Assembly (NCBI GenBank): GCA_027345185.1
Contig: DAHWIK010000044.1
Coordinates: 3,396 to 67,395, forward strand
Direction: 5' to 3'
DNA from: Candidatus Micrarchaeota archaeon
Lineage (GTDB): Archaea; Micrarchaeota; Micrarchaeia; Micrarchaeales; CABMGC01
DNA length: 64,000 nt
Shown: one piece after another, positions 36,947 to 63,493 of the stretch
Layout of the letters: the number at the start of each line of letters is the position of its first letter
Numbering within the stretch: the stretch's first letter is position 1
Position numbers and translations under genes: made by a program
The notes under the pieces: model-generated
What the model was told of the DNA's origin: nothing
What the model saw: only the letters and a program-made list of their open reading frames with translations
Databases searched by the model: none

Positions 36947-37966
36947 TCAGTAGAGCGTGCCTATGCTTTCTATATTCAGGGCAGCGACCTTCTCCTCGCT
37001 TCTCGCCCTCTCCCCGAACTTTGCCTTGACCCCTGTTACTACGGACATTACGCGTATCTCGTCCCTTAGCTCAGGGACCATCCTTGCTCCGAATATCACG
37101 TTCGCGTTTCCTGCAACGCCCTCGGTCACTCCTTCACCTATCTGCGTTGCCTCGCTTATGGTAAGGCTCGTTCCTCCGACTACCTGTATCAGGCCGCCCT
37201 TTGCGCCATCATAGTCGACTGAAAGCAATGGATGCGCCCTTGTTGACTTTACCGCCTGTTCCACTCTGTCAGAGCCTCTCCCGTATCCTAGGCTTATCAC
37301 TGCGGTTCCGGTATTCCTGACCACATTCTTCAAGTCTGCAAAATCAAGGTTTATCAGGCTCGGAAGTGTTATGCAGTCTGCTATGCCCTTTACGGCATTC
37401 CCTGTGACGTTGTCAACTACCTCGAATGCCCTCTCTATGGGCAGGTTGGGCACGTATGACAAGAGCTTGTCGTTCTCTATCACTATCGTGCAGTCAGCTT
37501 CCTTGTTAAGCTGCTCCAGGCCCCAATCGGCCTTGAACCTTCTGCTCCTCTCAAGAGAGAACGGATATGTGACTGTGGCAACAACCACTGCCCCCAGCTC
37601 CCTTGCAACTCTTGCAACTGTAGGTGCAGCTCCTGTACCAGTTCCTCCTCCCATGCCTGCGGCAACAAACACCAGATTGTACCCTTCGAGCATCTTTTCT
37701 ATCTCTCCGCGGCTTACGTCTGCGCACTTCGCTGCCACCTCTGGGAACCCTCCTGCACCCAAGCCGTTTGTTATGTTCTTTCCTATAAGAAGCTTCTTGT
37801 TGGCCTTTATCATGTTGAGGTGCCCTATATCAGTGTTTACTGCTATAGTGTCAGCACTCTTCATTCCGTAATTGAACAGCCTGTTCACCAGGTTGCTTCC
37901 CTGTCCGCCTACCCCTACCACAGCTATTTTTGGGCTGAAGGAGTCATAGTCAAATTGGTCTACCAT
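36947..37966 (-). CDS. ftsZ: Cell division GTPase FtsZ (paralogue, downstream copy)
   Basis: GVGGQGSNLVNRL and tubulin signature GMGGGTGTGAAP. Confidence 0.9.
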   Translation of the reverse strand: MVDQFDYDSFSPKIAVVGVGGQGSNLVNRLFNYGMKSADTIAVNTDIGHLNMIKANKKLLIGKNITNGLGAGGFPEVAAKCADVSRGEIEKMLEGYNLVFVAAGMGGGTGTGAAPTVARVARELGAVVVATVTYPFSLERSRRFKADWGLEQLNKEADCTIVIENDKLLSYVPNLPIERAFEVVDNVTGNAVKGIADCITLPSLINLDFADLKNVVRNTGTAVISLGYGRGSDRVEQAVKSTRAHPLLSVDYDGAKGGLIQVVGGTSLTISEATQIGEGVTEGVAGNANVIFGARMVPELRDEIRVMSVVTGVKAKFGERARSEEKVAALNIESIGTLY

Positions 37967-38004
37967 ATTGGATCACCAAATACCAAGATATGAAGGCATA
38001 GCCC

Positions 38005-39048
38005 TCATATCATGTCCAAGCCACCATACTTGACCTGCTGTGGTTCGTCGGCGAATTTCCCTACGATGCTTGATCCCTTCACTCCTGTAACTATGGCAAC
38101 TATCTCTAGCTGGCCCTCGTATCCAGGTATGATCCTTGCACCCCACTTTACGTTTGCCTTTGGATCCATCCTCTCGGTTATGATCTCTCCGGCTTTTATC
38201 GCATCTCCAAGGCTCAAGTCAGATGCACCAGATATGTGAATTAGTGCTCCCTTTGCATTCTCGAAGTCAACATCCAGAAGCTTATTCTTTAGGACAGCCT
38301 CAGCTGCAGAACCAACCTTGTCGTTTCCCTTTCCAGTTCCCACAGATATGAAGCCAACGTCTCCGCTTCCCATTATGGACCTTACGTCTGCAAAATCAAT
38401 GTTTATCAGGCTCGGCTGGGTTATTGTCCATACCAATCCTCCTATTGCCTTAGCTAGGATGTCGTCCGCTACAGCGAATGCCTCATTCATAGGCAGGTTG
38501 GGTACAAGCTTTACCAGCCTGTTGTTGTCCAGAAGTATTACACTGTCGCTGAACTTCCTTAGCCTCTGGATTCCGTCCTCTGCCTTTACCTTTCTCACCC
38601 TTTCCAGGTCGAATGGATATGTGACCATTGCAACCACTATCGCGCCCTGCTCCTTTGCAATCTGGGCAATTACCGGTATTGCTCCGGTTCCTGTTCCTCC
38701 TCCCATGCCTGCGCAAAGGAATACAAGCTGTGCTCCGGACAGAACCTCCTCGAGCTGCTGTCTGTCAGCCTCCGCGGCCTTGGCCCCGACTTCAGGATCT
38801 CCTCCTGCTCCGAGCCCCCGGGTCATGCTCTTTCCTATGAGGATCTTCTTTATTCTGTCATCGACTATCTTAAAGTGTGTAACATCAGTGTTGACAGCAA
38901 TGAGTTCCGTGCCCTTTACGCCAACCTTCAGTAATCGGTTTACGGTATTGTTACCTCCGCCTCCTACTCCTATTGTTACTATCTTTATCTGTGGAGCGCC
39001 GCTCGCGCTCTCCTCGCTTCTACTCAAGTCATTTCCGAATTCTACCAT
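38005..39048 (-). CDS. ftsZ: Cell division GTPase FtsZ (paralogue, upstream copy)
   Basis: GVGGGGNNTVNRL, GMGGGTGTGAIP and NIDFADV. Confidence 0.92.
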   Translation of the reverse strand: MVEFGNDLSRSEESASGAPQIKIVTIGVGGGGNNTVNRLLKVGVKGTELIAVNTDVTHFKIVDDRIKKILIGKSMTRGLGAGGDPEVGAKAAEADRQQLEEVLSGAQLVFLCAGMGGGTGTGAIPVIAQIAKEQGAIVVAMVTYPFDLERVRKVKAEDGIQRLRKFSDSVILLDNNRLVKLVPNLPMNEAFAVADDILAKAIGGLVWTITQPSLINIDFADVRSIMGSGDVGFISVGTGKGNDKVGSAAEAVLKNKLLDVDFENAKGALIHISGASDLSLGDAIKAGEIITERMDPKANVKWGARIIPGYEGQLEIVAIVTGVKGSSIVGKFADEPQQVKYGGLDMI

Positions 39049-44239: not shown

Positions 44240-45493
44240 TTATCTTTTATCCAGCTTCAGAACTCTTCTTACCTTGTCTATAGCATCTATTGCCTTGTCA
44301 ATTTCGTCCTGCTTGTTGTATAAATAAAAGCTTATCCTTGATACTGCAGCCTCATCGAGCACACCCACGACAAGTGGCATGGCGCAGTGATGGCCGGCCC
44401 TTATTGCTATTCCTTCGGTATCAAATATTGTAGAGACATCATGGGGATGGGCTCCGCTTATGTTGAATGATATTACTCCGCCGCGGCGGTCCACGCTCTT
44501 TATTCCGGGACCGTAGAGCTTCATGACTTTCACTTCCTCGAACCTCTTTAATGCGTATTTTAGCATCTCAACTTCGTGTGACCGCACCTTTTCAATGCCT
44601 ATCTTGTTAAGATAGCTTATGGCCGCGCCGAACCCTATCGCTCCCTCTATGTTTGGGGTCCCCGATTCGAACTTCCATGGAAGTTCATTCCATTCTGCCG
44701 ATTCGAAGGTTACTGAACGGATCATATCGCTGCCCACTATTGCTGGTGTGGTCTCTTCGAGGATATCTTCCTTGCCGTAGAGCACACCTATTCCGGAAGG
44801 ACCAAGCATCTTGTGGCTCGAGAACGCCATGAAGTCGCAGCCGATGTCCTTTACATCCACCTTCATGTGCGGGACTGTTTGTGCGGCATCCACAAGAACC
44901 GTGGCGCCTGCGTCATGTGCAAGCTTTGTCATAAGCTTTACGTCGTTTATTGTGCCTAGCACGTTTGATGCGTGCGTGAATGCTACGACCTTCGGCTTCT
45001 TCTCCAGCTTCTTCTTGAAATCATCCATGTCAACGAATGACTTTTCTACCAGTGCAGTGTGATCCAAGAACGCCTTCTTCCTCTTTGCAAGCATAAGCCA
45101 TGGGACTATGTTGCTGTGATGCTCCATGTCCGTTATAAGTATGTGATCTCCGGATTTTATTTTAGGCTCAGCGTATGAAAGGGCGGCTATATTTATAGCG
45201 TCTGTGGTATTTCTGCAGTAGATTATGTTCCTGTATGATTCTGCATTTATGAATTTGGCTGCAAGCTCCTTTGAATTCACATAGGCATCGGTGGACTTCA
45301 TTGATATCTGATACAGTCCTCTGTGTATGTTTGAATTGTACGTCTCGTAGTAGTCTTTTACCGCATCTATTACCTGCCTTGGCTTCTGTGAAGTTGAGGC
45401 GCTGTCAAGAAAGACAAGAGGCTTGCCGTTTATCTTAGTGCTGAGTATCGGGAAGTCCTCCCTTATCTGGTCTACATCTAACACTGCCATCAT
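44240..45493 (-). CDS. sufS: Cysteine desulfurase, SufS type
   Basis: PLP lysine region AFSSHKMLGPSGIGVLYG and active-site loop RAGHHCAMP. Confidence 0.9.
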   Translation of the reverse strand: MMAVLDVDQIREDFPILSTKINGKPLVFLDSASTSQKPRQVIDAVKDYYETYNSNIHRGLYQISMKSTDAYVNSKELAAKFINAESYRNIIYCRNTTDAINIAALSYAEPKIKSGDHILITDMEHHSNIVPWLMLAKRKKAFLDHTALVEKSFVDMDDFKKKLEKKPKVVAFTHASNVLGTINDVKLMTKLAHDAGATVLVDAAQTVPHMKVDVKDIGCDFMAFSSHKMLGPSGIGVLYGKEDILEETTPAIVGSDMIRSVTFESAEWNELPWKFESGTPNIEGAIGFGAAISYLNKIGIEKVRSHEVEMLKYALKRFEEVKVMKLYGPGIKSVDRRGGVISFNISGAHPHDVSTIFDTEGIAIRAGHHCAMPLVVGVLDEAAVSRISFYLYNKQDEIDKAIDAIDKVRRVLKLDKR

Positions 45494-46224
45494 TTCTCAT
45501 CCGGCGTATACCCTTCATTCTCAACCTGTGCGATAAGCTCCTTTCCGCCTTCCCTCACCACTTTCCCGTCTGCCATTATGTGTATGAACTGGGGCTCCAT
45601 GTAGTTCAGTATCCTGCTGTAGTGCGTTATAAGGAGTACGCTGGCATTTGCCTTCCTCCTTATTTCGTTTATGTTCTCCGCAACCACTCTTACAGCGTCT
45701 ATGTCCAGGCCTGAGTCTGGCTCGTCGAGTATGGCCAGCTTCGGTTTGAAAATGGCCATCTGGAGTACTTCCATCTTCTTCTTCTCTCCTCCGGAAAACC
45801 CGTAGTTTAGCGACCTTCCAATAAGGTCCTCCCTAAGCTTCAGGCTTTCGACGTTATTCTTTATCTCGCCCATGAACTCCTTGTAGCTTATCTTCTCCTT
45901 GTTCAGTGCGCCCCTTGCAGAGTTCAGGAAATTCACTATCCCCATTCCTTCTATCTCAATAGGATTCTGGAACTGAAGGAATAAGCCGAGTTTTGCGCGT
46001 TCGTTTACGGGAAGATCGTTTATCACTTTTCCGTCTGCGGTTATTTCGCCGTTTGTTATCTTCACTGCAGGATGGCCCATTATCGATTTTGCAAGGGTTG
46101 TCTTTCCACTGCCGTTCGGGCCCATGAGCACATGGAGCTCGCCTTCGCCAATCTTGAGATTGACCCCCTTAAGCACGTTCCTCTGCTCCAGATCTGCATG
46201 CAGATCTCTTATATCTAGTATCAC
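45490..46224 (-). CDS. sufC: Fe-S cluster assembly ATPase SufC
   Basis: Walker A GPNGSGKTT, ABC signature FSGGEKKK, Walker B AILDEPDSGLD. Confidence 0.92.
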   Translation of the reverse strand: MILDIRDLHADLEQRNVLKGVNLKIGEGELHVLMGPNGSGKTTLAKSIMGHPAVKITNGEITADGKVINDLPVNERAKLGLFLQFQNPIEIEGMGIVNFLNSARGALNKEKISYKEFMGEIKNNVESLKLREDLIGRSLNYGFSGGEKKKMEVLQMAIFKPKLAILDEPDSGLDIDAVRVVAENINEIRRKANASVLLITHYSRILNYMEPQFIHIMADGKVVREGGKELIAQVENEGYTPDEK

Positions 46225-46232
46225 ATATTCAC

Positions 46233-47456
46233 CTATTTGCTTATCCAGACTCCCTTTGCAGTCAGGTCAGAGAGCACTCCAAAGGTTCCTCTTTCAAGCT
46301 TTTCAAGCATGACAGACATTGCGATTTCACTTGCAGCACCGTTAGTTATATTCGACATGTATTTTGATATAAATGCTGTTATGAACATCTTCTTTGCCTG
46401 CTTCTCTTCTAGGCCGCGTGACTCCAGATAGAATAGCGCCTCCTGGTCTATTGGTGATGTTGCGGCTGAGTGGGTTGCCTTTACCTCGTTGCTGTAGTCT
46501 ATGGCCATGTCTGGAAGGGCGTCTATGTGTGCATCGCCGCTCAGAAGTATCCCTCTTTCGGTTATCCTTGAAAAGCATCCCTTGGTTCCCTTCTCTACCT
46601 TTGCGAATCCCTTCAGCATGCAACGCGACTTGCCATCCAGCACAGCGCCTGAATTTAGCTGCGCGTGGCTCCTTGGCCTAGTATTTGATATCGAATTTGC
46701 AAGGTCAAACTTCTGCTCCTTTACTCCAAACGCTATCTCGTTTATCTCGACCCTGCTCTCTGTTCCGGAAGAATCTACTACGCACCTTGATTTTGTCATG
46801 GATCCCCCGTTGTATACGAAATTTCCACGAAACTTTGTATTGTCAGCTATGTTGGCCTTGCACAGATTCACAACATTAGAATTTACATTTTCATTGTGCA
46901 GGACGTTAAGCTCTACTTCTGAATCATGTGCAGCTGAAATTTCATGGAGTATGACGACAGAACCCTGGCTCTCCGGCTCCGAAGCGCAGATCTCAAATAT
47001 GCCTAGTTTGGATTTGCTTTCCACATTTACGATTACCTGCACAGGAAGAAGGCCGTCATTCAAGAATAGCAGGTTTACTGATTGTGACTTCTTGCCGTTT
47101 GAATCTATCATTATGAAATATTTTGAGTGCGCATTGGAATAAGCTGCAAACTTATCATCCCCGCTCTTGAAGATCTTGCCATCAAGGAACCTTGCATCAA
47201 CCTCGTTTGCTTTAACTATCTTTATTGAATCGTTAACGCTCTTTGCGTAGCTTACGGATATTATCGCATCAAATTTTATCTTTGTTCTTTCGGATATCTG
47301 TTGCGCCACTGATTCTGACTGCGGAGTCTCTTGGGGTAAATCTTGGTCTGGAAGAGGTATGTCCAGCGAGAATTTCTTGTAGAGATAGTTTGTCTCCAGG
47401 GGAAGGATCTCATAGTTCGCTATAGCATCATCAATAAACTCTTTGTGCGTCAACAC
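46233..47456 (-). CDS. sufD: Fe-S cluster assembly protein SufD
   Basis: The C-terminal beta-helix region is paralogous to SufB (ATHSAATSPIDQEALFYLESRGLEE versus SufB ISHEAKVGKISDDEIFYLMSRGISE). Confidence 0.8.
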   Translation of the reverse strand: MLTHKEFIDDAIANYEILPLETNYLYKKFSLDIPLPDQDLPQETPQSESVAQQISERTKIKFDAIISVSYAKSVNDSIKIVKANEVDARFLDGKIFKSGDDKFAAYSNAHSKYFIMIDSNGKKSQSVNLLFLNDGLLPVQVIVNVESKSKLGIFEICASEPESQGSVVILHEISAAHDSEVELNVLHNENVNSNVVNLCKANIADNTKFRGNFVYNGGSMTKSRCVVDSSGTESRVEINEIAFGVKEQKFDLANSISNTRPRSHAQLNSGAVLDGKSRCMLKGFAKVEKGTKGCFSRITERGILLSGDAHIDALPDMAIDYSNEVKATHSAATSPIDQEALFYLESRGLEEKQAKKMFITAFISKYMSNITNGAASEIAMSVMLEKLERGTFGVLSDLTAKGVWISK

Positions 47457-47474
47457 GGCTACACCTTTTTGTAA

Positions 47475-48890
47475 TTAACCTACTCCTTTGCTTGTATCAA
47501 GTTTTATGAGCCTCTTAAGCTCCAGAGAATACTCTACAGGGAGAACTTTGGTGAGATCATCTATGAACCCTAAGACTATCATTGCAGTTGCATCATCTTC
47601 GGATATTCCTCTTGACATTAAGTAGAATATTTCGTCGTCGCTTATCTTTCCAACCTTGGCTTCGTGGCTTATCATTGCATCGCTTCTGTTTATCTCGTTG
47701 TAGGGGAAGGTGTTTGTCTTCGCATTCTCATCAAGCAGGAGTGCATCGCATGAGACGTGTGACTTTACGTTTGCAGCATTCTTTGCAACATGGAGAAGCC
47801 CCCTGAAGCTTGTGACTCCAGATCCCTTTGAAACGCTCTTCGATATTATCTTTGAGGTTGTGTTTGGAGCGAGATGGTATATCTTGCCTCCTGACTCCTG
47901 TGTTTGGCCGTCTCCGGCAAGTGCGATTGAAAGCACCTCTCCGCTTGCTCCGTCTCCTTGAAGGAATATGCTTGGGTACTTCATATTCACAAAACTGCCT
48001 ATATTCGCGTCGATCCATTCGACCCTTCCTTTCTTCGCAACATGCGCACGTTGCGTCACAAGGTTGTAGACATTTTTTGACCAGTTCTGTATTGTCACAT
48101 ATCTTATGTGAGCTCCTTCAAGTGCAACGAGTTCTACAACTGCAGAGTGCAGTGCATTGCTAGTATACACCGGGCTCGTACAACCCTCCAGATACACGAC
48201 GTCTGCACCCTCATCTGCGATGATTAGAGTCCTTTCGAATTGGCCGGAGTTCTTTGCATTGATTCTGAAGTATGCGTTGAGCGGCATCGGGACCTTTACG
48301 CCTTTTGGAACGTATATGAAACTGCCTCCGCTCCATGTCGCAGTGTTGAGGGCTGCGAACTTATTGTCCGTTGGCGGGATTATCTTCCCCCAGTATTTCT
48401 TCATCAGCTCAGGGTAATTCTTCACTGCCGTATCAGTATCTGTGAATATTACACCAAGCTTTTCGAGCTCCTTGTTTATGTGAGAATATACTACTGAGCT
48501 GTCGAACTGGGCCTCTGCGCCTGCGAAGAACCTTCTCTCCGCTTCTGGAACCCCAAGCTTGTCGAACGTCTGCTTTATGTCATCTGGCACATTCTCCCAC
48601 TTGTTTGATTCCTCGTTTGCCTTAGGGCTCATGTAGTAATAGTAATCCTCGAACTTTATGGCGCTGAGGTTTGCTCCCCATTGCGGTACTGACTTGCTCT
48701 GGAAGACCTTATATGCAGTGAGCCTCTTCTCCAGCATCCATTCGGGCTCCCCCTTCAGCTTTGATATTCTTCTTACAACATCCTCTGACAATCCTCGCGG
48801 AAATTCGTCGTAGGAGACATCCTGATAGAACCCATACTTCTCCTTGTACTCTCTCTTCTCAACTACCTCTTCTAGGCCTTCGTTCACCAT
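47475..48890 (-). CDS. sufB: Fe-S cluster assembly scaffold SufB
   Basis: 471 aa. WSGGSFIYVPKGVKV, ISHEAKVGKI and FYLMSRGI are conserved SufB blocks. Confidence 0.92.
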   Translation of the reverse strand: MVNEGLEEVVEKREYKEKYGFYQDVSYDEFPRGLSEDVVRRISKLKGEPEWMLEKRLTAYKVFQSKSVPQWGANLSAIKFEDYYYYMSPKANEESNKWENVPDDIKQTFDKLGVPEAERRFFAGAEAQFDSSVVYSHINKELEKLGVIFTDTDTAVKNYPELMKKYWGKIIPPTDNKFAALNTATWSGGSFIYVPKGVKVPMPLNAYFRINAKNSGQFERTLIIADEGADVVYLEGCTSPVYTSNALHSAVVELVALEGAHIRYVTIQNWSKNVYNLVTQRAHVAKKGRVEWIDANIGSFVNMKYPSIFLQGDGASGEVLSIALAGDGQTQESGGKIYHLAPNTTSKIISKSVSKGSGVTSFRGLLHVAKNAANVKSHVSCDALLLDENAKTNTFPYNEINRSDAMISHEAKVGKISDDEIFYLMSRGISEDDATAMIVLGFIDDLTKVLPVEYSLELKRLIKLDTSKGVG

Positions 48891-52513: not shown

Positions 52514-53056
52514 TCAATTTAGATCGCGCTTGAAGTCCTTCTCAATCCTGCTTACCTTAGGCTTTATTACAAATGTGCAGTATCCTTGGTATGGATTCTT
52601 CTCGAAATATTTTTGGTGGTACTCTTCCGCAGGATAGAACTTGTCCAGCTTCACCAATTCGGTCACTATAGGTTGACCGTACTCCGGCTGCTCCTTCTTT
52701 ATGAACTCCTTTGCGATCTCCTTTTGGCTTTCCGTTGTGTATAGTATTATTGATCTGTACTGCGTCCCAAAGTCAGCACCCTGCCTGTTGAGTGAGGTAG
52801 GGTCGTGCATCTTGAAGAATATTTCTAATATCTTTTCTAGAGAAACTGATTTTGGGTCGTATTCCACCAGAGTTACCTCGGCGTGGCCCGTATCCCCGCT
52901 GCATACCTGCTCATATGTCGGATTCTTGGTATGCCCTCCAGCGTATCCTGGTGTTGTCTTGACAACGCCCTTAAGCATATCAAATATCGCCTGAGTGCAC
53001 CAGAAGCATCCTCCGCCCAGAAGTATCCTCTCATTTTTGCTTTGCATCCTAGTCAC
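52514..53056 (-). CDS. msrA: Peptide methionine (S)-sulfoxide reductase MsrA
   Basis: Active-site GGGCFWC, GYAGG, and HDPTSLNRQG. Confidence 0.9.
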   Translation of the reverse strand: MTRMQSKNERILLGGGCFWCTQAIFDMLKGVVKTTPGYAGGHTKNPTYEQVCSGDTGHAEVTLVEYDPKSVSLEKILEIFFKMHDPTSLNRQGADFGTQYRSIILYTTESQKEIAKEFIKKEQPEYGQPIVTELVKLDKFYPAEEYHQKYFEKNPYQGYCTFVIKPKVSRIEKDFKRDLN

Positions 53057-53417
53057 CCTTGTCTGGTATGAATTTTAAGGATATTGAATTTACGCAATGC
53101 CTCGTGTTCTTAGGCGTGAATCCCTCTCCTAGGAAGACATGCCCAAGGTGGGCGCCGCATCTTGCGCACTCTATCTCGGTGCGCATGCCGTCGATGTCTG
53201 GAACCCTCTTCACCGCACCATGAATCTCCTGGTCGAAGCTTGGCCATCCGCATCTTGCATCGAACTTGTCCCTTGATCTATATAATGGAGTCTCGCATCT
53301 CCTGCACACATATATGCCTGGCTTGAAGAAGTTGTCGTACTCCCCTGTGAAAGGCATCTCCGTGCCCCTGTGGACAATCACGCGCTCCTCTTCTGGAGTT
53401 AGCTTGTTCAGCTTCAT
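53049..53417 (-). CDS. msrB: Peptide methionine (R)-sulfoxide reductase MsrB
   Basis: Zinc CxxC pairs (CRRCETPL, CARCGAHLGHVF), CGWPSF, and a catalytic region ending RHCVNS. Start trimmed to MKLNKLTPEE because the longer ORF overlaps the upstream gene. Confidence 0.88.
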   Translation of the reverse strand: MKLNKLTPEEERVIVHRGTEMPFTGEYDNFFKPGIYVCRRCETPLYRSRDKFDARCGWPSFDQEIHGAVKRVPDIDGMRTEIECARCGAHLGHVFLGEGFTPKNTRHCVNSISLKFIPDKGD

Positions 53418-53434
53418 GGATTCAACATCTTGAT

Positions 53435-54154
53435 TTATGTCGGAACTGCGCCGAATACGCGGCCTATCAGGTATCCGGCAAACCCTGCAGTAAGGCCAAT
53501 CAGAAGCATCTCCATCCCGCTGCGCCACAGCGAACCGAGGGTAACTTTTGCCTCGTAATATCCCACTATGAAAAGCACAATTGCGCTGAGTATAACAGAT
53601 GCGATTGCAGCAGTTGCTATGTTACCTGAAAAGAATATGAACGGTATGAGTGGTATTACTGAACCAAGTGCGGTTGCAATAAGAACTGTCACAAAGCTTT
53701 TCGCTGGTGCTGACTTCTCGACAGGTGCAAGCTTCAGTTCGAATGACATCATGAACTCGAGCCATGCCTTCTCGTTGGAGCAGATCAAATCTGTCATTGA
53801 CTTTAGCTTCTTGCCCTTGTATCCCCACTCTACTAGAACATCGACGACCTCCTGCCTTTCCACTTTTGGCACTTCCCTCATCTCCCTTTTCTCAGTCTCT
53901 ACCTCCTTTAGATAGTGCTTAAACCTAGATTTAGTTGAGGTGTATGCTACTGCGGCCATAGAGATTGTTTCTGCGCCGAGGGCCGCAAGAGCCGCAACAA
54001 AGATAAGTCGTACGTCAGAAGTAGCGGCGGAAACTCCCAGAATGATTCCAAGCACATTCACCAGACCATCCTGCCCGCCAAGTATTACGTCAGAAAGCAT
54101 AGTGGGTCTGGAGTGCTGCTCGCTGTGCTCATTTCTAATATTCAGGGCAGTCAT
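53435..54154 (-). CDS. VIT1/CCC1 family iron/manganese transporter
   Basis: LSDVILGGQDGLVNVLGIILGVSAA, a central cytoplasmic helical E-rich domain, and five TM helices. Confidence 0.75.
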   Translation of the reverse strand: MTALNIRNEHSEQHSRPTMLSDVILGGQDGLVNVLGIILGVSAATSDVRLIFVAALAALGAETISMAAVAYTSTKSRFKHYLKEVETEKREMREVPKVERQEVVDVLVEWGYKGKKLKSMTDLICSNEKAWLEFMMSFELKLAPVEKSAPAKSFVTVLIATALGSVIPLIPFIFFSGNIATAAIASVILSAIVLFIVGYYEAKVTLGSLWRSGMEMLLIGLTAGFAGYLIGRVFGAVPT

Positions 54155-54238: not shown

Positions 54239-54958
54239 CTACGTTTCGTTTGCAGCTATTCCGGCAAGAACAGTATAATTTACTGGGAATCCTGGATTTG
54301 AGAATGCCTGCACAAAGACTGCATCCCTGCCCTTCCAGCCAGTTATTGACTGGAAGTTTCCTGTGCTATTTTCATAGAGCTGATAGGTATAGCTTAAACC
54401 GTTGACCGTACCGTACAGCGTCTGCGGTGGGGAGCTGTAAAACTGGGATACGGATGAAACGATTGACGAAGACAGACTTGACGCGTTATACGCATACATT
54501 ACCAAAAAATATATTGATTGGTTTTTGGTCAGGTTTTGGCCCTGCACCATTGTGACCCAACCCTCGGTGACATTGCCTGCGGCGTAAGGAGTGACATTAT
54601 ACATATATGTTATGTTTATTGGCGATGAGGCATTGAATAGGTCAGATGTAGAATAAATTGAAACCTGACCCAACAGGATTTGTGACTGTGAAGCGCTCAG
54701 ATAGATAGGCGTGCCTCCTGTTGAGCCTAGGCTGGGCACCACTGCAGTTGTCGTTCCCAATACGGATGGCCCTGTTCCGGCGCTTGGCTGTAAGACAAAT
54801 ATTAACACTAGAGCTATTGCAATAAGAAGCACAACTACAATGACTAATAGCGTCTTTGTATTGCTTTGCTTGCTTCCTGCGGCATTGGACGAGGTGTCCT
54901 GATTTGCAGGGTTGACTGGGCTCTGGCTGGTTGCTGAACTGTTATTATTTGCTGGCAT
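54239..54958 (-). CDS. Membrane-anchored extracellular protein, S/T/N-rich with many N-glycosylation sequons
   Basis: Low-complexity N-terminus, a single TM helix (LLVIVVVLLIAIALVLIFVL), then a domain with about 10 NxS/T sequons. Confidence 0.4.
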   Translation of the reverse strand: MPANNNSSATSQSPVNPANQDTSSNAAGSKQSNTKTLLVIVVVLLIAIALVLIFVLQPSAGTGPSVLGTTTAVVPSLGSTGGTPIYLSASQSQILLGQVSIYSTSDLFNASSPINITYMYNVTPYAAGNVTEGWVTMVQGQNLTKNQSIYFLVMYAYNASSLSSSIVSSVSQFYSSPPQTLYGTVNGLSYTYQLYENSTGNFQSITGWKGRDAVFVQAFSNPGFPVNYTVLAGIAANET

Positions 54959-55105
54959 GACTACCTCCGCGTTCTATTGCATGTATGGCATGCGACTTTT
55001 TAAAGTTTGCTGTGCATTTCGTTTTTTTATCTCTTGTTATGCCCGAAATGGATTGAAGAGAAAGTAGTATATAGTAGAAAATACCTAATATGTATTAGTG
55101 GAAGC

Positions 55106-55684
55106 ATGGCTGAAACAGAGATTGATGGTGTTCAAGCAAAGGTAAACAAGCTCCTGGAGCTTGCAAAGTATGCTGCGTCAGTCAGTCCTGCGGATACGGA
55201 TCTGTATTCAAAGTCGCTTATTATTGATTTCAGGTATTATGATGGCTCGCCGCATTCCGGTCCTGTTAAATTATACCCAAAGGACATTTTGAAGATGACA
55301 GATTCTGAACTTAGGGAGGTGATTACGTCCCAGGGCAAGCCGGCTGCAATAAAATACCTGCAGAGCCTTAACCTGCCATTGGTCAACCCTGCATGGCCAT
55401 TGACCAAATCAAAAGAGAAGGGACACGTGATTAATACTTTCAAAAAAATATACAAGTATTTGGAACCTGACCCTAAAATTGAAAAAAAAGATGAAAAACC
55501 ACAAGAACCTAGTTCAAATTATGCCTACAGGTGTTCAAGGTGCGGAAAAGCGCCCCTTACAGGACCGGTGCTCTACTGCGACGGATGCAGCCAGTACATG
55601 TGCTATGAGTGCGGCATTCCGAGCGGATACATGGTCTGGAACTGCCCAAACTGCGCAATAGAGACCCAGCGTGTGGTGCTGTAG
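55106..55684 (+). CDS. Hypothetical protein with C-terminal double zinc-ribbon (4 x CxxC)
   Basis: CSRCGKAPLTGPVLYCDGCSQYMCYECGIPSGYMVWNCPNC. Start moved to the ATG at 55106; the ORF-track TTG extension is hydrophobic junk. Confidence 0.45.
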   Translation: MAETEIDGVQAKVNKLLELAKYAASVSPADTDLYSKSLIIDFRYYDGSPHSGPVKLYPKDILKMTDSELREVITSQGKPAAIKYLQSLNLPLVNPAWPLTKSKEKGHVINTFKKIYKYLEPDPKIEKKDEKPQEPSSNYAYRCSRCGKAPLTGPVLYCDGCSQYMCYECGIPSGYMVWNCPNCAIETQRVVL

Positions 55685-55750: not shown

Positions 55751-55951
55751 ATGTGCCAGGCTCCAGTAGGCAAGGTAATAGGACTTGATAGTGACAGCAT
55801 AACCGTAGAGTACAATGGGAAAGATAGGGTGCTAAAGAAGTCAAAGTTCCTTGACGCTAAGATAGGCGAGTACGTGCTGTTTTCGCTGGACATAGCGATA
55901 GACAAGGTGGACAAGGAAGAAGCTGAAATGATATTGAAGGGCATGAAATGA
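55751..55951 (+). CDS. hypC: Hydrogenase maturation chaperone HypC
   Basis: 66 aa. N-terminal MCQAPVGKVI (canonical MC[LI]xxPG[KQ]V), and GEYVLFSLDIAIDKVDKEEAE. Confidence 0.8.
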   Translation: MCQAPVGKVIGLDSDSITVEYNGKDRVLKKSKFLDAKIGEYVLFSLDIAIDKVDKEEAEMILKGMK

Positions 55952-56460
55952 ACGCTGAAGACAGGCTGCTATTTCTAAGATATGCGCTCCCGTGCGCTGG
56001 CACTCTTGTAAGAAGAGGCAAGGTCTCGCAAGACTATGTAAACAGTCTGATAAGGCTGGTCTCTGAAGACAAGTTGCCCCCTGAAGGAACGGAAAAGATG
56101 TTTATAGTGGCTAGCACCATGTGCAGCAAGATAGCCAATAGGCTGGGAAAGGCTGAGATAGATCAAGACGTAATAAGGACTTATTTCCTTTTTGAGCACG
56201 GTGAAGTTGTGGATGATAGGTTTGCACTCATGAAGGACTTTAATCCTGTTGACTGCAAGACATATCCGGGCAAAGTGATAGACGTGGAGGCCACTTCCGC
56301 AGTTGTAGAAACAAATCTGGGAAGCAAGGCATACAGTATAATTTTTGCAAAAGGAGTGAAGCCTGGAAACAGTGTCGTTGTGCATTATGATTACATAATA
56401 GAAAAGATAAGCGAGGATGCAGTCAAAAGGATGAACGTACTAGGGCAGGGTAAGCAATGA
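55948..56460 (+). CDS. HypC-like domain protein with about 100-aa N-terminal extension
   Basis: Residues about 102-165, DCKTYPGKVIDVEATSAVVETNLGSKAY...GNSVVVHYDYIIEKISEDA, reproduce the HypC pattern including the Cys-x3-PGKV box. That Cys is residue 103 rather than residue 2. ATGA overlap with hypC. Confidence 0.6.
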   Translation: MNAEDRLLFLRYALPCAGTLVRRGKVSQDYVNSLIRLVSEDKLPPEGTEKMFIVASTMCSKIANRLGKAEIDQDVIRTYFLFEHGEVVDDRFALMKDFNPVDCKTYPGKVIDVEATSAVVETNLGSKAYSIIFAKGVKPGNSVVVHYDYIIEKISEDAVKRMNVLGQGKQ

Positions 56461-59683: not shown

Positions 59684-59914
59684 TTACTGATTCATAGTCA
59701 ACTGCCTTCATGTGCAAAGGTCTTGCACCATCTTCGGAGTCGTTGGCTTCCTGCACGTCCTGCAGTAGTTGGACTTTTTCAAGTCGACCATTTTTATTAC
59801 GGCTTTGGGATTAATATACGTTGCAGTGGTCTTGTATGCCTGGCCTGAAAGAGATGGTTTTTACTTCCACATCAAGAAACCCGGAAATTTTTGATCAGCG
59901 TTTATTTAGCAACA

Positions 59915-59924
59915 TTTTAAATTT
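59915..59924 (+). promoter_or_regulatory. Putative TATA box for a leaderless ChdC/heme operon transcript
   Basis: TTTTAAATTT is centred about 25 nt upstream of the ATG at 59944. Confidence 0.35.
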
Positions 59925-59943
59925 AGCGTTTGCTAATATTATC

Positions 59944-60585
59944 ATGGGATTTTTCATATCTAACGTCTTAGCATACAAGTTCAGACCCAGTTGGTGGGAA
60001 CTTGAAAAGGATAGAAGGAAAATGATACTGGATGAGCTTAGGGAGACGCTTAAAGGAGTGGGAGGGGGCGGCGGGAAGGTGCTTAAAGCCGAGATCTACT
60101 CGTCATTGAGGTACGACTGCAGCATAATCTTCTGGCTGCTCTTGAATAAACCGGAAGAGCTTCCGGTTGCAAGGGCGAAACTAGAGAAGATCCTTGGCAG
60201 GCACGCTTCGATAAAGCACGGCTTCCTCTCTGTATACGAGCAGAAGAAGGAGAAAGGCGACGAAAAACGCGAGTATTTCGTAGCGTACCCGATAAGCAAG
60301 GATCCGGAGTGGTACCTTCTTGATAAAGTCGAGCGCTCCGAGATAATGGCGGAGCACATAAAAATTGCGACAGAGAACCCGAATAACAAAGGGATAAATT
60401 CTTATACAACGATGTCATTTGGTATAGACGATAATGAATTCGTCGTCCTGTACGAGCTGAACTCGATTGAAGAGTGGGTGCTTGTCACGCAGAGCTTGAG
60501 GGAGGCAAAGGCAAGGAAGTGGATGACTAACGAGAAGCCCATACTGGTCGGGAGAAAGGACAATGTTGAGGCTTTTTTGGCATGA
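59944..60585 (+). CDS. Chlorite dismutase family protein, coproheme decarboxylase (ChdC/HemQ)-like
   Basis: ERSEIMAEHIKIA (proximal His region), TTMSFGIDDNEFVVLYELNSIEEW and LREAKARKW match the Cld/HemQ C-terminal domain. The start was chosen at MGFFISNVLAYKF by analogy with HemQ N-termini. Confidence 0.7.
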   Translation: MGFFISNVLAYKFRPSWWELEKDRRKMILDELRETLKGVGGGGGKVLKAEIYSSLRYDCSIIFWLLLNKPEELPVARAKLEKILGRHASIKHGFLSVYEQKKEKGDEKREYFVAYPISKDPEWYLLDKVERSEIMAEHIKIATENPNNKGINSYTTMSFGIDDNEFVVLYELNSIEEWVLVTQSLREAKARKWMTNEKPILVGRKDNVEAFLA

Positions 60586-60598
60586 TCATGGTGGTAAA

Positions 60599-60889
60599 AT
60601 GATAAACGTAGGGATGTATTACAATGTAAAGCAGGGGCATGAAGCCGAGTTTGAGGGGACATTCGCCGGAGTGGTGGAGAAACTGAAAGGCGCTGGAGTA
60701 GGAATAAAGGACGCTAAGCTGTACAGGGAGATAGGAAAGAGCGAGTACATGATATACACAGAATGGGAGAGCCTTGAAGCCTTCAAGGGATTCATACAGA
60801 GCAGGGCATTCGGTGAGACCGTTGCCAATGGAAAGTCCATTATAGAGGGCAGGCCGAGGCACAAGGTATTCGCAGAGATGGATGAGTAG
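60599..60889 (+). CDS. Antibiotic-biosynthesis-monooxygenase (ABM/Dabb) domain protein
   Basis: 96 aa. INVGMYYNVKQGHEAEFE...YMIYTEWESLEAFKGF is the typical ABM ferredoxin-like pattern. A GGTGG sequence lies upstream of the ATG at 60599. Confidence 0.65.
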   Translation: MINVGMYYNVKQGHEAEFEGTFAGVVEKLKGAGVGIKDAKLYREIGKSEYMIYTEWESLEAFKGFIQSRAFGETVANGKSIIEGRPRHKVFAEMDE

Positions 60890-60903
60890 TTTAGGCTGGT
60901 GCA

Positions 60904-61785
60904 ATGAAGGGAGTGTTGCTGATGGCATATGGAGCTCCGAATTCCATAGAAGGGATAAAGGACTATTATACGGATATAAGGGGAGGAGTAGCGCCATCAG
61001 TCGAACACATTGGTGATCTTGTCAAGAGGTACGAGGCCATAGGAGGTGTGTCGCCATTATACAAGATAACTGTAGACCAGGCAGAAGGCCTGCAGAAGGC
61101 CCTTGGTTCGCGTTCGGTGGTCTATTTTGGCATGAAGCATTCACGGCCTTTTATAAAGGATGCTGTTGGAAAAAGCGCGGATGAAGGCGTAGATGAGCTT
61201 CTTTGCATAGCAATAGCTCCGCATTACTCCATAACAGGAACAGGATCTTACATAAGCAGGGTAAAGGATGCAAACACGGCGTTGGGCAACAGAATCCGCA
61301 CAGTGTTTGTAAATTCATGGCACCTTAACAGAAACCTGATAGAATTCTGGAGCAGAAGCATACTCAAGGCTTCTGTAGGGATGAAGAAGCCGTTCATCGT
61401 ATTTTCAGCGCACAGCCTGCCTGAGAAAGCTGAAAGCACAGGCCCCTATAAGGGCCAGCTTCTGGAAACTTCTGCAGCGGTTGCAGAAAAAGCAGGGATA
61501 ACGGACTGGGGGCTTGCATTCCAGAGCCAGAGCAGCAGGGGAGAAAAATGGTACGGACCCACCATACCTGAACTTATAGAGGCCAATATGGAGGAAGACA
61601 GATCGTTTGTCATCGCACCGATAGGATTCGTTTCTGACAACCTTGAGATACTTTATGACATAGACATTGTCTGCAGAAGATGGGCAGAGGATAAAAAGAT
61701 AGTGATGAATCGTGCGGATATGCCGAATAACTCTGCGCTGCTCATAGCGGCGCTTGACGATATTGCAAAGGATAATGGATTATGA
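60904..61785 (+). CDS. hemH: Ferrochelatase (short soluble type; HemH/CpfC)
   Basis: GVLLMAYGAPNS, SPLYKIT and FSAHSLPEK, with the C-terminal E/H acidic region absent or short. 293 aa. Confidence 0.85.
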   Translation: MKGVLLMAYGAPNSIEGIKDYYTDIRGGVAPSVEHIGDLVKRYEAIGGVSPLYKITVDQAEGLQKALGSRSVVYFGMKHSRPFIKDAVGKSADEGVDELLCIAIAPHYSITGTGSYISRVKDANTALGNRIRTVFVNSWHLNRNLIEFWSRSILKASVGMKKPFIVFSAHSLPEKAESTGPYKGQLLETSAAVAEKAGITDWGLAFQSQSSRGEKWYGPTIPELIEANMEEDRSFVIAPIGFVSDNLEILYDIDIVCRRWAEDKKIVMNRADMPNNSALLIAALDDIAKDNGL

Positions 61786-61819
61786 GCTGGCTTGCACAAG
61801 ACGTATTAAGTTGGCATTT

Positions 61820-63493
61820 ATGGAAAAAGTAGTGATTGGAGCAAGGGGAAGCAGGCTGAGCATTGCGCAGACGCAGATAGTCGTTGACAGGATAAAGAGG
61901 TCCTTTCCCAAACTTGCAGTGGAAATCCGAGTCATAAAGACTTACGGAGACATGAAGAAGGGGATGAAGCTTGACAGCATGGAGCAGAAGGGTGTTTTCG
62001 TAAAGGACATAGACAGGCAGCTTGCCGATGGGCAGATAGACCTTGCAGTGCACAGCCTGAAGGACATACCCACAAAACTGCCCGATTCACTGAAGATAGG
62101 CGCAATAGTGGAGAGGTCTGATCCGAGGGACGTACTGATATCAAGGGATAACAGCAAGCTAAGGGACCTCAAGAGGAATGCCAAGATAGGGACGAGCAGC
62201 CTGAGGAGGATGGGGCAGCTGCTTGCGTTTAGAAAAGACCTGAAGGTTGTGGAGATGAGGGGCAATGTTGACAAAAGGGTAGCAAAGCTTGACAGCGGAG
62301 ATTACGACGCGATAGTGCTTGCCGCTGCAGGAATAAAAAGGCTAGGATTGGAGAAGAGAATATCCGAATATCTGCCATTTGGCGTGATGCTTCCTGCGCC
62401 GGGGCAGGGAGCCCTTGCAGTAGAGATCAGAAGCGGTGACAGGCGTGCCGAGGAGATAGCGCGCAGAATAGACGATGCAAAAGTAAGGGCTTCTGTTGAA
62501 GCCGAGAGGATAGCGCTTTCGCGGATTGGAGGTGGCTGCAACGCCCTTCTTGGGGTATTGGCTGGGGTCAGGGGCGACAAGCTGAATATGTCCGCTGCGA
62601 TAACCAGCAGGGACGGGAAAAGAAAACGCAGATACACTCAAAGGGGACTTCTCGGTTTTCCAGAGGAGGCGGGGTTGATGCTGGCCGAGAAGATACTGAT
62701 GAGCGATGTTGCTGATATTATAGGAGACAAAAGACCATATTCTCCGCTCAGTGGGAAGGTCGTACTGGTGACCAGGGAGGAGGCAGAGGGAGAAGGCATA
62801 TGCCAGATGCTTCTTGAACGAGGGGCCGTACCTGTATATTTTCCTACAATAAAGACCGTGGATATCGACAGCCGGGATTCCGGGAAGAAATTAGATAGGC
62901 TGAACAAGTATGACGTTGTGGTAATTACGAGCAGGCGCGGAGCGTCCAGGCTTCTTGGCCTGCTAAAATATAAAGGCATGAGGATGGGTCTGGCAGGCGC
63001 AAGGGTGGTTGCAATAGGAACTGAAACGAAAAGGTATCTCGAGGGCAGCGGAGTGCCGGTGGATTATGTGCCGGATGACTCATATTCCAGGGAGATAGTC
63101 TGCGGCCTGAAAGGGATAAAGGGAAGGAGGATCCTTGTAATAAATTCTGCAAGGGCAGGAAACGGACTGGTTGAGGGATTGGCCAGCAAGGGCGGAAAGG
63201 TAGACAGGATGACCCCGTACACGGTGACGAAGCCGGATACAAGCGGGCTCAGAAGGAAGGCGATATTGGGATATAAGTTCGACTTCGTGACCTTCGCAAG
63301 CCCGTCTGCAGTTGAAGGGTTGATTGCAATCCTTGGGGAGCGCAATGCAAAAAAGGTTCTCTCAAAGAGCAAGGTCGTATGCATAGGAGATACAACGTCA
63401 AAAAAATGCTCCGAAGAAGGAATAAGGGTTCATGCCGTATCGGAAGTGCATTCCCTTTCCGGGATTGTAGACTGCATGGAAAGATCAGGATGA
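61820..63493 (+). CDS. hemC: Fusion protein: hydroxymethylbilane synthase (HemC) + uroporphyrinogen-III synthase (HemD)
   Basis: The N-terminal ~300 aa carry IGARGSRLSIAQT, DLAVHSLKD, RGNVDKRV and the cofactor Cys in GGCNALLG. The C-terminal ~250 aa (GKVVLVTREEAEG...VVITSRRGA...FASPSAVEG) are HemD-like. Start set at the ATG at 61820. Confidence 0.8.
   Translation: MEKVVIGARGSRLSIAQTQIVVDRIKRSFPKLAVEIRVIKTYGDMKKGMKLDSMEQKGVFVKDIDRQLADGQIDLAVHSLKDIPTKLPDSLKIGAIVERSDPRDVLISRDNSKLRDLKRNAKIGTSSLRRMGQLLAFRKDLKVVEMRGNVDKRVAKLDSGDYDAIVLAAAGIKRLGLEKRISEYLPFGVMLPAPGQGALAVEIRSGDRRAEEIARRIDDAKVRASVEAERIALSRIGGGCNALLGVLAGVRGDKLNMSAAITSRDGKRKRRYTQRGLLGFPEEAGLMLAEKILMSDVADIIGDKRPYSPLSGKVVLVTREEAEGEGICQMLLERGAVPVYFPTIKTVDIDSRDSGKKLDRLNKYDVVVITSRRGASRLLGLLKYKGMRMGLAGARVVAIGTETKRYLEGSGVPVDYVPDDSYSREIVCGLKGIKGRRILVINSARAGNGLVEGLASKGGKVDRMTPYTVTKPDTSGLRRKAILGYKFDFVTFASPSAVEGLIAILGERNAKKVLSKSKVVCIGDTTSKKCSEEGIRVHAVSEVHSLSGIVDCMERSG

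Follow-up and report, generated by a model that had tools for sequence, protein, structure and literature searches.

Within a stretch of 64,000 nucleotides from a Candidatus Micrarchaeota archaeon (contig DAHWIK010000044.1, positions 3,396 to 67,395 of the forward strand; hereafter the window), an open reading frame (ORF) of 170 amino acids (aa) encodes a two-domain variant of the hydrogenase maturation chaperone HypC. In this protein, which we call long HypC, a genuine HypC domain stands behind a new autonomous helical domain, and the hallmark cysteine of the family is placed at residue 103. Long HypC is a family and not an oddity of a single genome, with members found only in DPANN archaea (the phyla Micrarchaeota, Aenigmatarchaeota, Iainarchaeota and Nanoarchaeota). 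It most likely serves specifically the group-3b-type [NiFe] hydrogenase of these archaea, and we see about an even chance that it acts as an unprocessed two-domain protein together with a short HypC encoded immediately upstream.

In current models of hydrogenase maturation, HypC-type chaperones need a Cys at the very N-terminus. This Cys ligates the Fe(CN)2CO unit together with Cys41 of HypD (PMC8692609; PMC12134894; PMC11565642), and the unit is then inserted into the large subunit. The long HypC family challenges the textbook rule of an N-terminal HypC Cys in hydrogenase assembly: either this position is not a chemical requirement, or these archaea use a previously unseen processing step or a different scaffold.

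A HypC domain behind a conserved helical domain

In this 170-aa forward-strand ORF (Table 1) the first-pass annotation had described a HypC domain, in which the Cys is residue 103 and the nearest upstream Met lies eight residues away, and we recovered all of these features. Cys103 is encoded by TGC (56254-56256), the closest upstream Met is M95, and the HypC motif DCKTYPGKVIDV covers residues 102-113. The product is predicted to be a soluble protein of 19 kDa. The profile PF01455 (HupF_HypC) aligns residues 103-162 with its positions 2-61 of 65, at 33.6 bits and an E-value of 4.5e-8, above the gathering cut-off of 28.5 bits, and it was matched by all 25 relatives scanned. A profile of the family finds the HypC of Thermococcus kodakarensis (2z1c) with an E-value of 9.5e-11, placing Cys103 opposite Cys2. 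Furthermore, the C-terminal half of the structural model superposes on the HypC crystal structures 2z1c and 3vyt (Foldseek) with template modelling (TM) scores, normalised to the target, of 0.78-0.90 and root-mean-square deviations of 1.3-1.4 Å. As these three independent tests agree, residues 103-162 are a genuine HypC domain with an OB-fold. The stricter model TIGR00074 gave 22.8 bits, below its cut-off of 48. The second hallmark residue, His146 (codon 56383-56385), aligns with the His of the VH motif and corresponds to His51 of the Escherichia coli protein and His45 of the T. kodakarensis protein. Long HypC keeps both the Cys and the His that mark the metal-handling face of HypC.

The N-terminal 100 residues had been said to resemble nothing recognisable, and this description was borne out. 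The N-domain had no match in Pfam or NCBIfam when the window protein and 25 relatives were scanned, and Foldseek found nothing alike among solved structures (best E-value 2.3, probability 0.11). An AlphaFold2 model of the full-length protein, calculated with 25 homologues, reached a predicted local distance difference test (pLDDT) of 95.6 and a predicted TM score (pTM) of 0.90. Modelled alone, the N-domain gave a confident six-helix bundle of no known fold, with a pLDDT of 90 and a pTM of 0.80; the predicted helices span residues 3-16, 18-22, 28-39, 48-51, 53-65 and 73-95. The blocks at the junction (residues 91-110) have a pLDDT of 91-96 in the full-length model. In the N-domain-only model the tail falls to 81 (residues 91-100) and 69 (residues 101-102), and thus the linker is predicted to be ordered by packing of the N-domain rigidly onto the HypC barrel. 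A fragment of HypD was ruled out as the source of the N-domain: comparison of the two profiles with hhalign gave a probability of 0.6% and an E-value of 0.1, the test for homology to HypD (PF01924) with its motifs CGxH, GPGCPVC and GFETT was negative, and the N-domain lacks the cysteine set for a [4Fe-4S] cluster. We conclude that it is a new autonomous helical domain.

The same extension occurs in the homologues. A word-indexed search returned 51 of them, nearly all of 162-194 aa (131, 187 and 259 aa are listed as outliers) and most aligning over more than 88% of the query; the nearest relatives, with 60-68% identity, come from Micrarchaeota, in keeping with a probable origin of the window in this phylum. 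A scan of one genome per species located 26 loci, nearly all labelled as DPANN: mostly Micrarchaeota, several Aenigmatarchaeota and one Iainarchaeum, the remaining ones being labelled "uncultured archaeon" (three) and "Archaeon isolate SAG" (one). When the N-domain profile was run against 1.84 billion representative proteins, it found at least 255 clusters (counted at 50% identity) with E<=1e-3, of which 122 reached E<=1e-10. Almost all of the 255 are 150-210 aa long and have the same two-domain build; in this search the N-domain never made up a full-length protein by itself, nor was it combined with an unrelated domain. A distant member from a Nanoarchaeota metagenome-assembled genome (MAG) carries the NCBI label "HypC/HybG/HupF family hydrogenase formation chaperone". 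Since the whole two-domain protein is kept in 51 close homologues and 255 representative clusters, its conservation is far beyond chance.

Residue counts were taken over 184 family sequences. His84, in the N-domain, is invariant (184/184). His146 of the HypC domain is present in 182, Cys103 and Tyr79 in 181 each, and Cys16, also in the N-domain, in 176; Cys59 (121/184) is kept only in the Micrarchaeota-type clade. Averaged over 183 relatives, identity to the window protein is 42% in the N-domain compared with 36% in the HypC domain. A mean-field direct coupling analysis of the 184 sequences was set aside, its signal coming mainly from gap artefacts.

The residue before Cys103 varies widely among these sequences (D 43, L 31, A 19, E 19, R 14, Y 8, and others). 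A Met is not conserved at this position, which is evidence against an internal start, and a site-specific protease would find no constant P1 residue there. This bears on the suggestion that the gene is misannotated, a normal short HypC starting internally just before Cys103 and the 100 codons upstream being untranslated. Only the expectation that a HypC begins with Met-Cys speaks for such a start. Across four DPANN phyla the 102 upstream codons are conserved as protein and include invariant positions; in the window as well as in relatives, translational coupling links the annotated ATG to the gene in front of it; and no start codon is conserved before Cys103. An internal start, one of two findings that the first-pass annotation had said would overturn its reading, was therefore effectively ruled out, and an annotation artefact is extremely improbable. 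The other, a lack of significant HypC similarity in the C-terminal part, is contradicted by the profile match.

The hydrogenase gene cluster and the short HypC

Long hypC lies within a compact hydrogenase cluster (Table 1). Its ATG shares the sequence ATGA (55948-55951) with the TGA of short hypC, and its own stop overlaps in the same way the ATG of the gene for an EamA-family permease, which is followed by the gene for a divergent hydrogenase maturation endopeptidase. The weak PF01750 match of this protease is found again in its Nanoarchaeota orthologue. The large subunit has RICGTC near its N-terminus and ends in DPCMSCASH followed by FLKVKWR.

Table 1. Features of the hydrogenase cluster and of the haem-synthesis-type genes, in window positions
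Feature	Position	Strand	Remarks
Short HypC, 66 aa	55751..55951	+	PF01455, 41.4 bits; starts Met-Cys; Ser44 at the HypC His position
Long HypC, 170 aa	55948..56460	+	Two domains, helical cap and HypC OB-fold
N-terminal helical domain of long HypC, residues 1-102	55948..56253	+	Holds Cys16 (codon 55993-55995) and His84 (codon 56197-56199)
HypC domain of long HypC, residues 103-170	56254..56457	+	PF01455, PDB profile match, Foldseek; holds Cys103 and His146
EamA/DMT-family permease, 303 aa	56457..57368	+	PF00892, E 2.3e-39
Divergent HycI/HybD-like hydrogenase maturation endopeptidase, 135 aa	57337..57744	+	Weak PF01750, 16.2 bits
[NiFe]-hydrogenase large subunit, 438 aa	57725..59041	-	PF00374, E 1.9e-26; convergent to the hyp operon
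Hydrogenase small subunit, 166 aa	59025..59525	-	PF01058, E 5.3e-18; four Cys only
Chlorite-dismutase/HemQ-like protein	59821-60585	+	
Ferrochelatase	60904-61785	+	
Fused porphobilinogen deaminase and uroporphyrinogen-III synthase, 579 aa	61754-63493	+	

The gene set recurs across the 36 loci that we examined, from four DPANN phyla: short hypC is a neighbour of long hypC in 31 of them, the protease gene in 30, the large-subunit gene in 29 and the EamA gene in 28, several of the missing neighbours being accounted for by short contigs. In addition, natural fusions tie long HypC to each of three partners. Short and long HypC are joined in two proteins (P0062 and P0155), the former within a normal cluster (GCA_053537215.1); long HypC is joined to EamA through a low-complexity linker of about 90 residues in P0077 (L038, 4811-6448) and to the protease in P0113. 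The Nanoarchaeota cluster (L034) adds HypA, a VIT1 transporter and two diaphorase-type subunits, the last of which complete a classical four-subunit group 3b-type set, and HypA is found in the cluster in Iainarchaeota as well. The enzymes of Micrarchaeota and Aenigmarchaeota have been classed as group 3b in MAG studies (PMC8561730; PMC8407114). As for the substrate of EamA, a metal or a metal chelate would be our guess.

The 66-aa upstream gene had been described as a canonical hypC with an ATGA overlap. The overlap stands, but the protein is not canonical. In the alignments, the column of the conserved His (His51 in E. coli, His45 in T. kodakarensis and a His also in Shewanella HypC) is occupied by Ser in the window short HypC, and none of 25 distinct short HypCs neighbouring a long HypC has a His there (S 15, A 5, Q 2, N 2, G 1). 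The long HypC partners do keep this His, as His146. In T. kodakarensis HypC, His45 is a conserved residue lining the HypC-HypD cavity for Fe(CN)2CO (PMC11565642). The two HypC hallmarks are thus divided over a pair of co-translated proteins, the free N-terminal Cys being carried by the short one and the His by the long one.

Taken together, these genes are a complete and compact set of structural and maturation genes for a minimal [NiFe] hydrogenase of two subunits, which is attractive for heterologous expression and bears on how ultra-small symbiotic archaea afford a [NiFe] enzyme.

Several further observations concern the cluster and its surroundings. The window hydrogenase is minimal, consisting of the large subunit and a small subunit with the proximal cluster only, and no diaphorase genes lie nearby; in Aenigmatarchaeota relatives (L005/L024/L028, L037) a Pyr_redox_2 flavoprotein either precedes the small subunit or is fused with it. 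One Micrarchaeota MAG (L012, 4359-5549, minus strand) has intact hyp genes but a large subunit that falls into five ORF fragments, indicating a pseudogene or an assembly error. A VIT1-family iron/manganese transporter is encoded at 53435-54154 (minus strand), 1.6 kb from the window short hypC, and a second VIT1 (L034, 9036-9512) lies between short and long hypC in the Nanoarchaeota cluster; VIT1 is not kept at the other Micrarchaeota loci examined. Between that second VIT1 and long hypC, a 134-aa protein with no Pfam match (L034, 9545-9949, plus strand) may be a further, unrecognised maturation factor. Just upstream of the hyp operon in the window (55007-55684, plus strand), a 225-aa protein ends in a double CxxC zinc-ribbon; it had no significant Pfam match and no counterpart in the 35 related loci.

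Proposed role of long HypC and alternative explanations

The first-pass annotation had offered two possibilities for this protein, a pro-protein processed to expose the Cys and a new kind of HypC-domain adaptor. The second is the one that we favour, on the basis of the conserved N-domain with its own His84 and Cys16, the junction predicted to be ordered, and the variable residue before Cys103. Thus, we propose that long HypC is an unprocessed two-domain HypC variant that acts with the short HypC, a proposal that we hold to be evenly balanced between right and wrong. In this mechanism the helical domain would sit on the face of the barrel where the N-terminus emerges, which is the face docking HypD or the large subunit in ordinary HypC. 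Cys16, His84, Cys103 and His146 may then form an internal Cys/His pocket, which would hold either the precursor of the large subunit or an iron unit, Fe or Fe(CN)2CO, with no need of a free N-terminus. The short and the long HypC would divide the labour of a normal HypC between them, the short protein shuttling and the long one holding and delivering to the large subunit, or keeping this subunit open, ahead of its trimming by the protease.

Several points weigh against this proposal. All HypC-family proteins studied so far have the Cys at the N-terminus, where it is described as essential, and a +26 Da modification maps to the N-terminal residue of HypC (PMC8692609; PMC12134894); consequently, an internal Cys might not support the same chemistry. 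The four-residue Cys/His pocket is putative, and Ser replaces Cys103 in three of the 184 members. Finally, five of the 36 loci have no short HypC nearby, and therefore the pairing is not obligatory in cis.

The pro-protein explanation, which we consider rather unlikely, sees the 102-residue domain as a pro-domain or an intramolecular chaperone. Once removed, whether by autocatalysis (an N-to-S acyl shift at Cys103) or by a protease, for instance the HycI-like enzyme of the cluster, it would leave a 68-aa HypC with both a free N-terminal Cys and a His. As the short HypC has no His, this processed form would be the sole fully canonical HypC encoded in the cluster. The near-invariant Cys103 aligns exactly with Cys2 of HypC, a protease gene is present in 30 of the 36 loci and is fused to long HypC in P0113, and known HypC chemistry all uses the N-terminal Cys (PMC8692609; PMC12134894). 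However, a pro-peptide that is thrown away would rarely be better conserved than the HypC part and contain an invariant His and a near-invariant Cys, as the N-domain does; the models predict a packed, well-ordered junction instead of an exposed linker; and the P1 residue is not conserved. HycI-type proteases cut after the His or Arg of a nickel-loaded DPCxxCxxH motif, a site unlike the junction found here (DFNPVD/C, the slash standing before Cys103). A conserved Cys right after a removable-looking N-terminal segment is also seen in the Cys N-terminal nucleophile (Ntn) hydrolases and in inteins, but long HypC shares neither fold nor sequence with them (no Ntn or HINT similarity in Pfam or Foldseek), the fold around Cys103 is the HypC OB-barrel, and its upstream segment is conserved and folded, with a junction predicted to be ordered. 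The OB-fold is not known to be self-cleaving.

Long HypC might also replace HypD. Alone or with the short HypC it would be a minimal scaffold holding Fe(CN)2CO between two cysteines in place of HypC-HypD in genome-reduced DPANN archaea. We regard this as improbable, and give equally little credence to its fuller form, in which long HypC and its His-less partner would make a self-contained iron scaffold, its Cys/His pocket shared by the helical domain and the HypC barrel, for a HypD-independent [NiFe] route, possibly fed by EamA. The HypC-HypD complex is a useful working analogy, in which the Cys and His of HypC are joined by a second Cys and His from another unit, at the presumed iron site. 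The iron of HypCD is held by HypC Cys2 and HypD Cys41, with His residues nearby (PMC12134894; PMC8692609; PMC11565642). Long HypC has a comparable additional Cys and His in its second domain, although here the second unit is a small helical domain of the same polypeptide with no homology to HypD, and the fusions of short and long HypC carry both kinds of Cys on one polypeptide. A motif scan, a HypD hidden Markov model and phmmer searches with E. coli HypB and HypE detected no HypD, HypE or HypB in about 520 kb around the 36 clusters and in the 64-kb window, but these flanks are 1-2% of each genome and, since hyp genes are often scattered, their absence there says little. Moreover, the N-domain is unlike HypD and has no [4Fe-4S] cysteine set, and the synthesis of cyanide and CO would still require HypE, HypF or substitutes. 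The HypE-like endings PRIC* in one locus (L025) and PRVC* in the window were dismissed as chance matches in short or antisense ORFs. The best 120 matches listed for HypD homologues belong mostly to Thermococcales and other non-DPANN lineages, and the DPANN genome papers that we found do not report hyp gene content.

Coupling to EamA is central to another explanation, that of a nickel or iron chaperone which takes the metal at the transporter and passes it to the large subunit or HypA, standing in for HypB or SlyD. The EamA gene adjoins long hypC in 28 of the 36 loci and the two proteins are covalently fused in P0077; two Cys and two His would make a suitable pocket for Ni(II); HypA occurs in the Nanoarchaeota and Iainarchaeota clusters while no HypB was seen; and VIT1 lies inside the Nanoarchaeota cluster and near the window short hypC. 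Against this, EamA proteins are not known as nickel transporters, the domain belongs to the HypC family and is not CooT- or HypA-like (no CooT match at E<=1), and the conserved His146 corresponds to the residue that links HypC to the Fe(CN)2CO cavity (PMC11565642). A role as a metal chaperone is, in our view, doubtful.

Relation to known families and other genes of the window

The superfamily HypC/HybG/HupF (PF01455, TIGR00074; T. kodakarensis HypC, 2Z1C and 3VYR; E. coli HypC) has in common an OB-fold and a C-terminal helix. Long HypC belongs to it by its C-terminal sequence, its fold, its Cys and His at equivalent positions and its context, being likewise encoded with hydrogenase genes and, as HybG, HupF and HoxL, forming a second paralogue beside another HypC. 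Yet it is not an ordinary member, because it fails in two respects. The Cys of the known proteins is residue 2, whereas that of long HypC does not directly follow the initiator Met; and the known proteins are single-domain and of 70-100 aa, whereas long HypC has an obligatory helical domain of 100 residues in front. The extensions of HupF-type paralogues are C-terminal and not N-terminal. Full-text literature searches turned up no account of a HypC whose Cys is internal or that carries an N-terminal domain.

The uncharacterised family DUF6390 (PF19927, with a profile of about 244 positions) showed weak matches in 22 of 25 long HypC proteins, with a best E-value of 3.1e-5, all below its gathering score of 25 bits. 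The window protein scored 13.6 bits, residues 133-163 aligning with profile positions 197-227 of 244, and the best long HypC scored 22.6 bits. The matches are confined to the final strands of the HypC domain, and the N-domains do not align. Since these weak matches all fall at profile positions of about 186-236, they suggest a HypC-like segment at the end of DUF6390 as well, following a large N-terminal region. A literature search found no mention of DUF6390, and a search from the long HypC with the highest DUF6390 score returned only that protein.

Elsewhere in the window, the plus strand carries a haem-synthesis-type run at 59821-63493 (Table 1), whose HemQ and ferrochelatase set is unexpected in a small DPANN-type archaeon. 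On the minus strand, 54239-54958 encodes a predicted membrane-anchored protein of 239 aa with a Ser/Thr/Asn-rich N-terminus, many N-x-S/T sequons and no Pfam match, which is probably a glycosylated surface protein. Two adjoining FtsZ/tubulin paralogues of 339 and 347 aa lie at 36947-39048 (minus strand). Finally, the minus-strand regions 44240-48890 and 52514-53528 jointly hold a SUF set for iron-sulfur assembly, with a likely SufS (class-V aminotransferase), a likely SufC (ABC ATPase) and two SufB/D proteins, and the adjacent, overlapping genes of the methionine sulfoxide reductases MsrA and MsrB.

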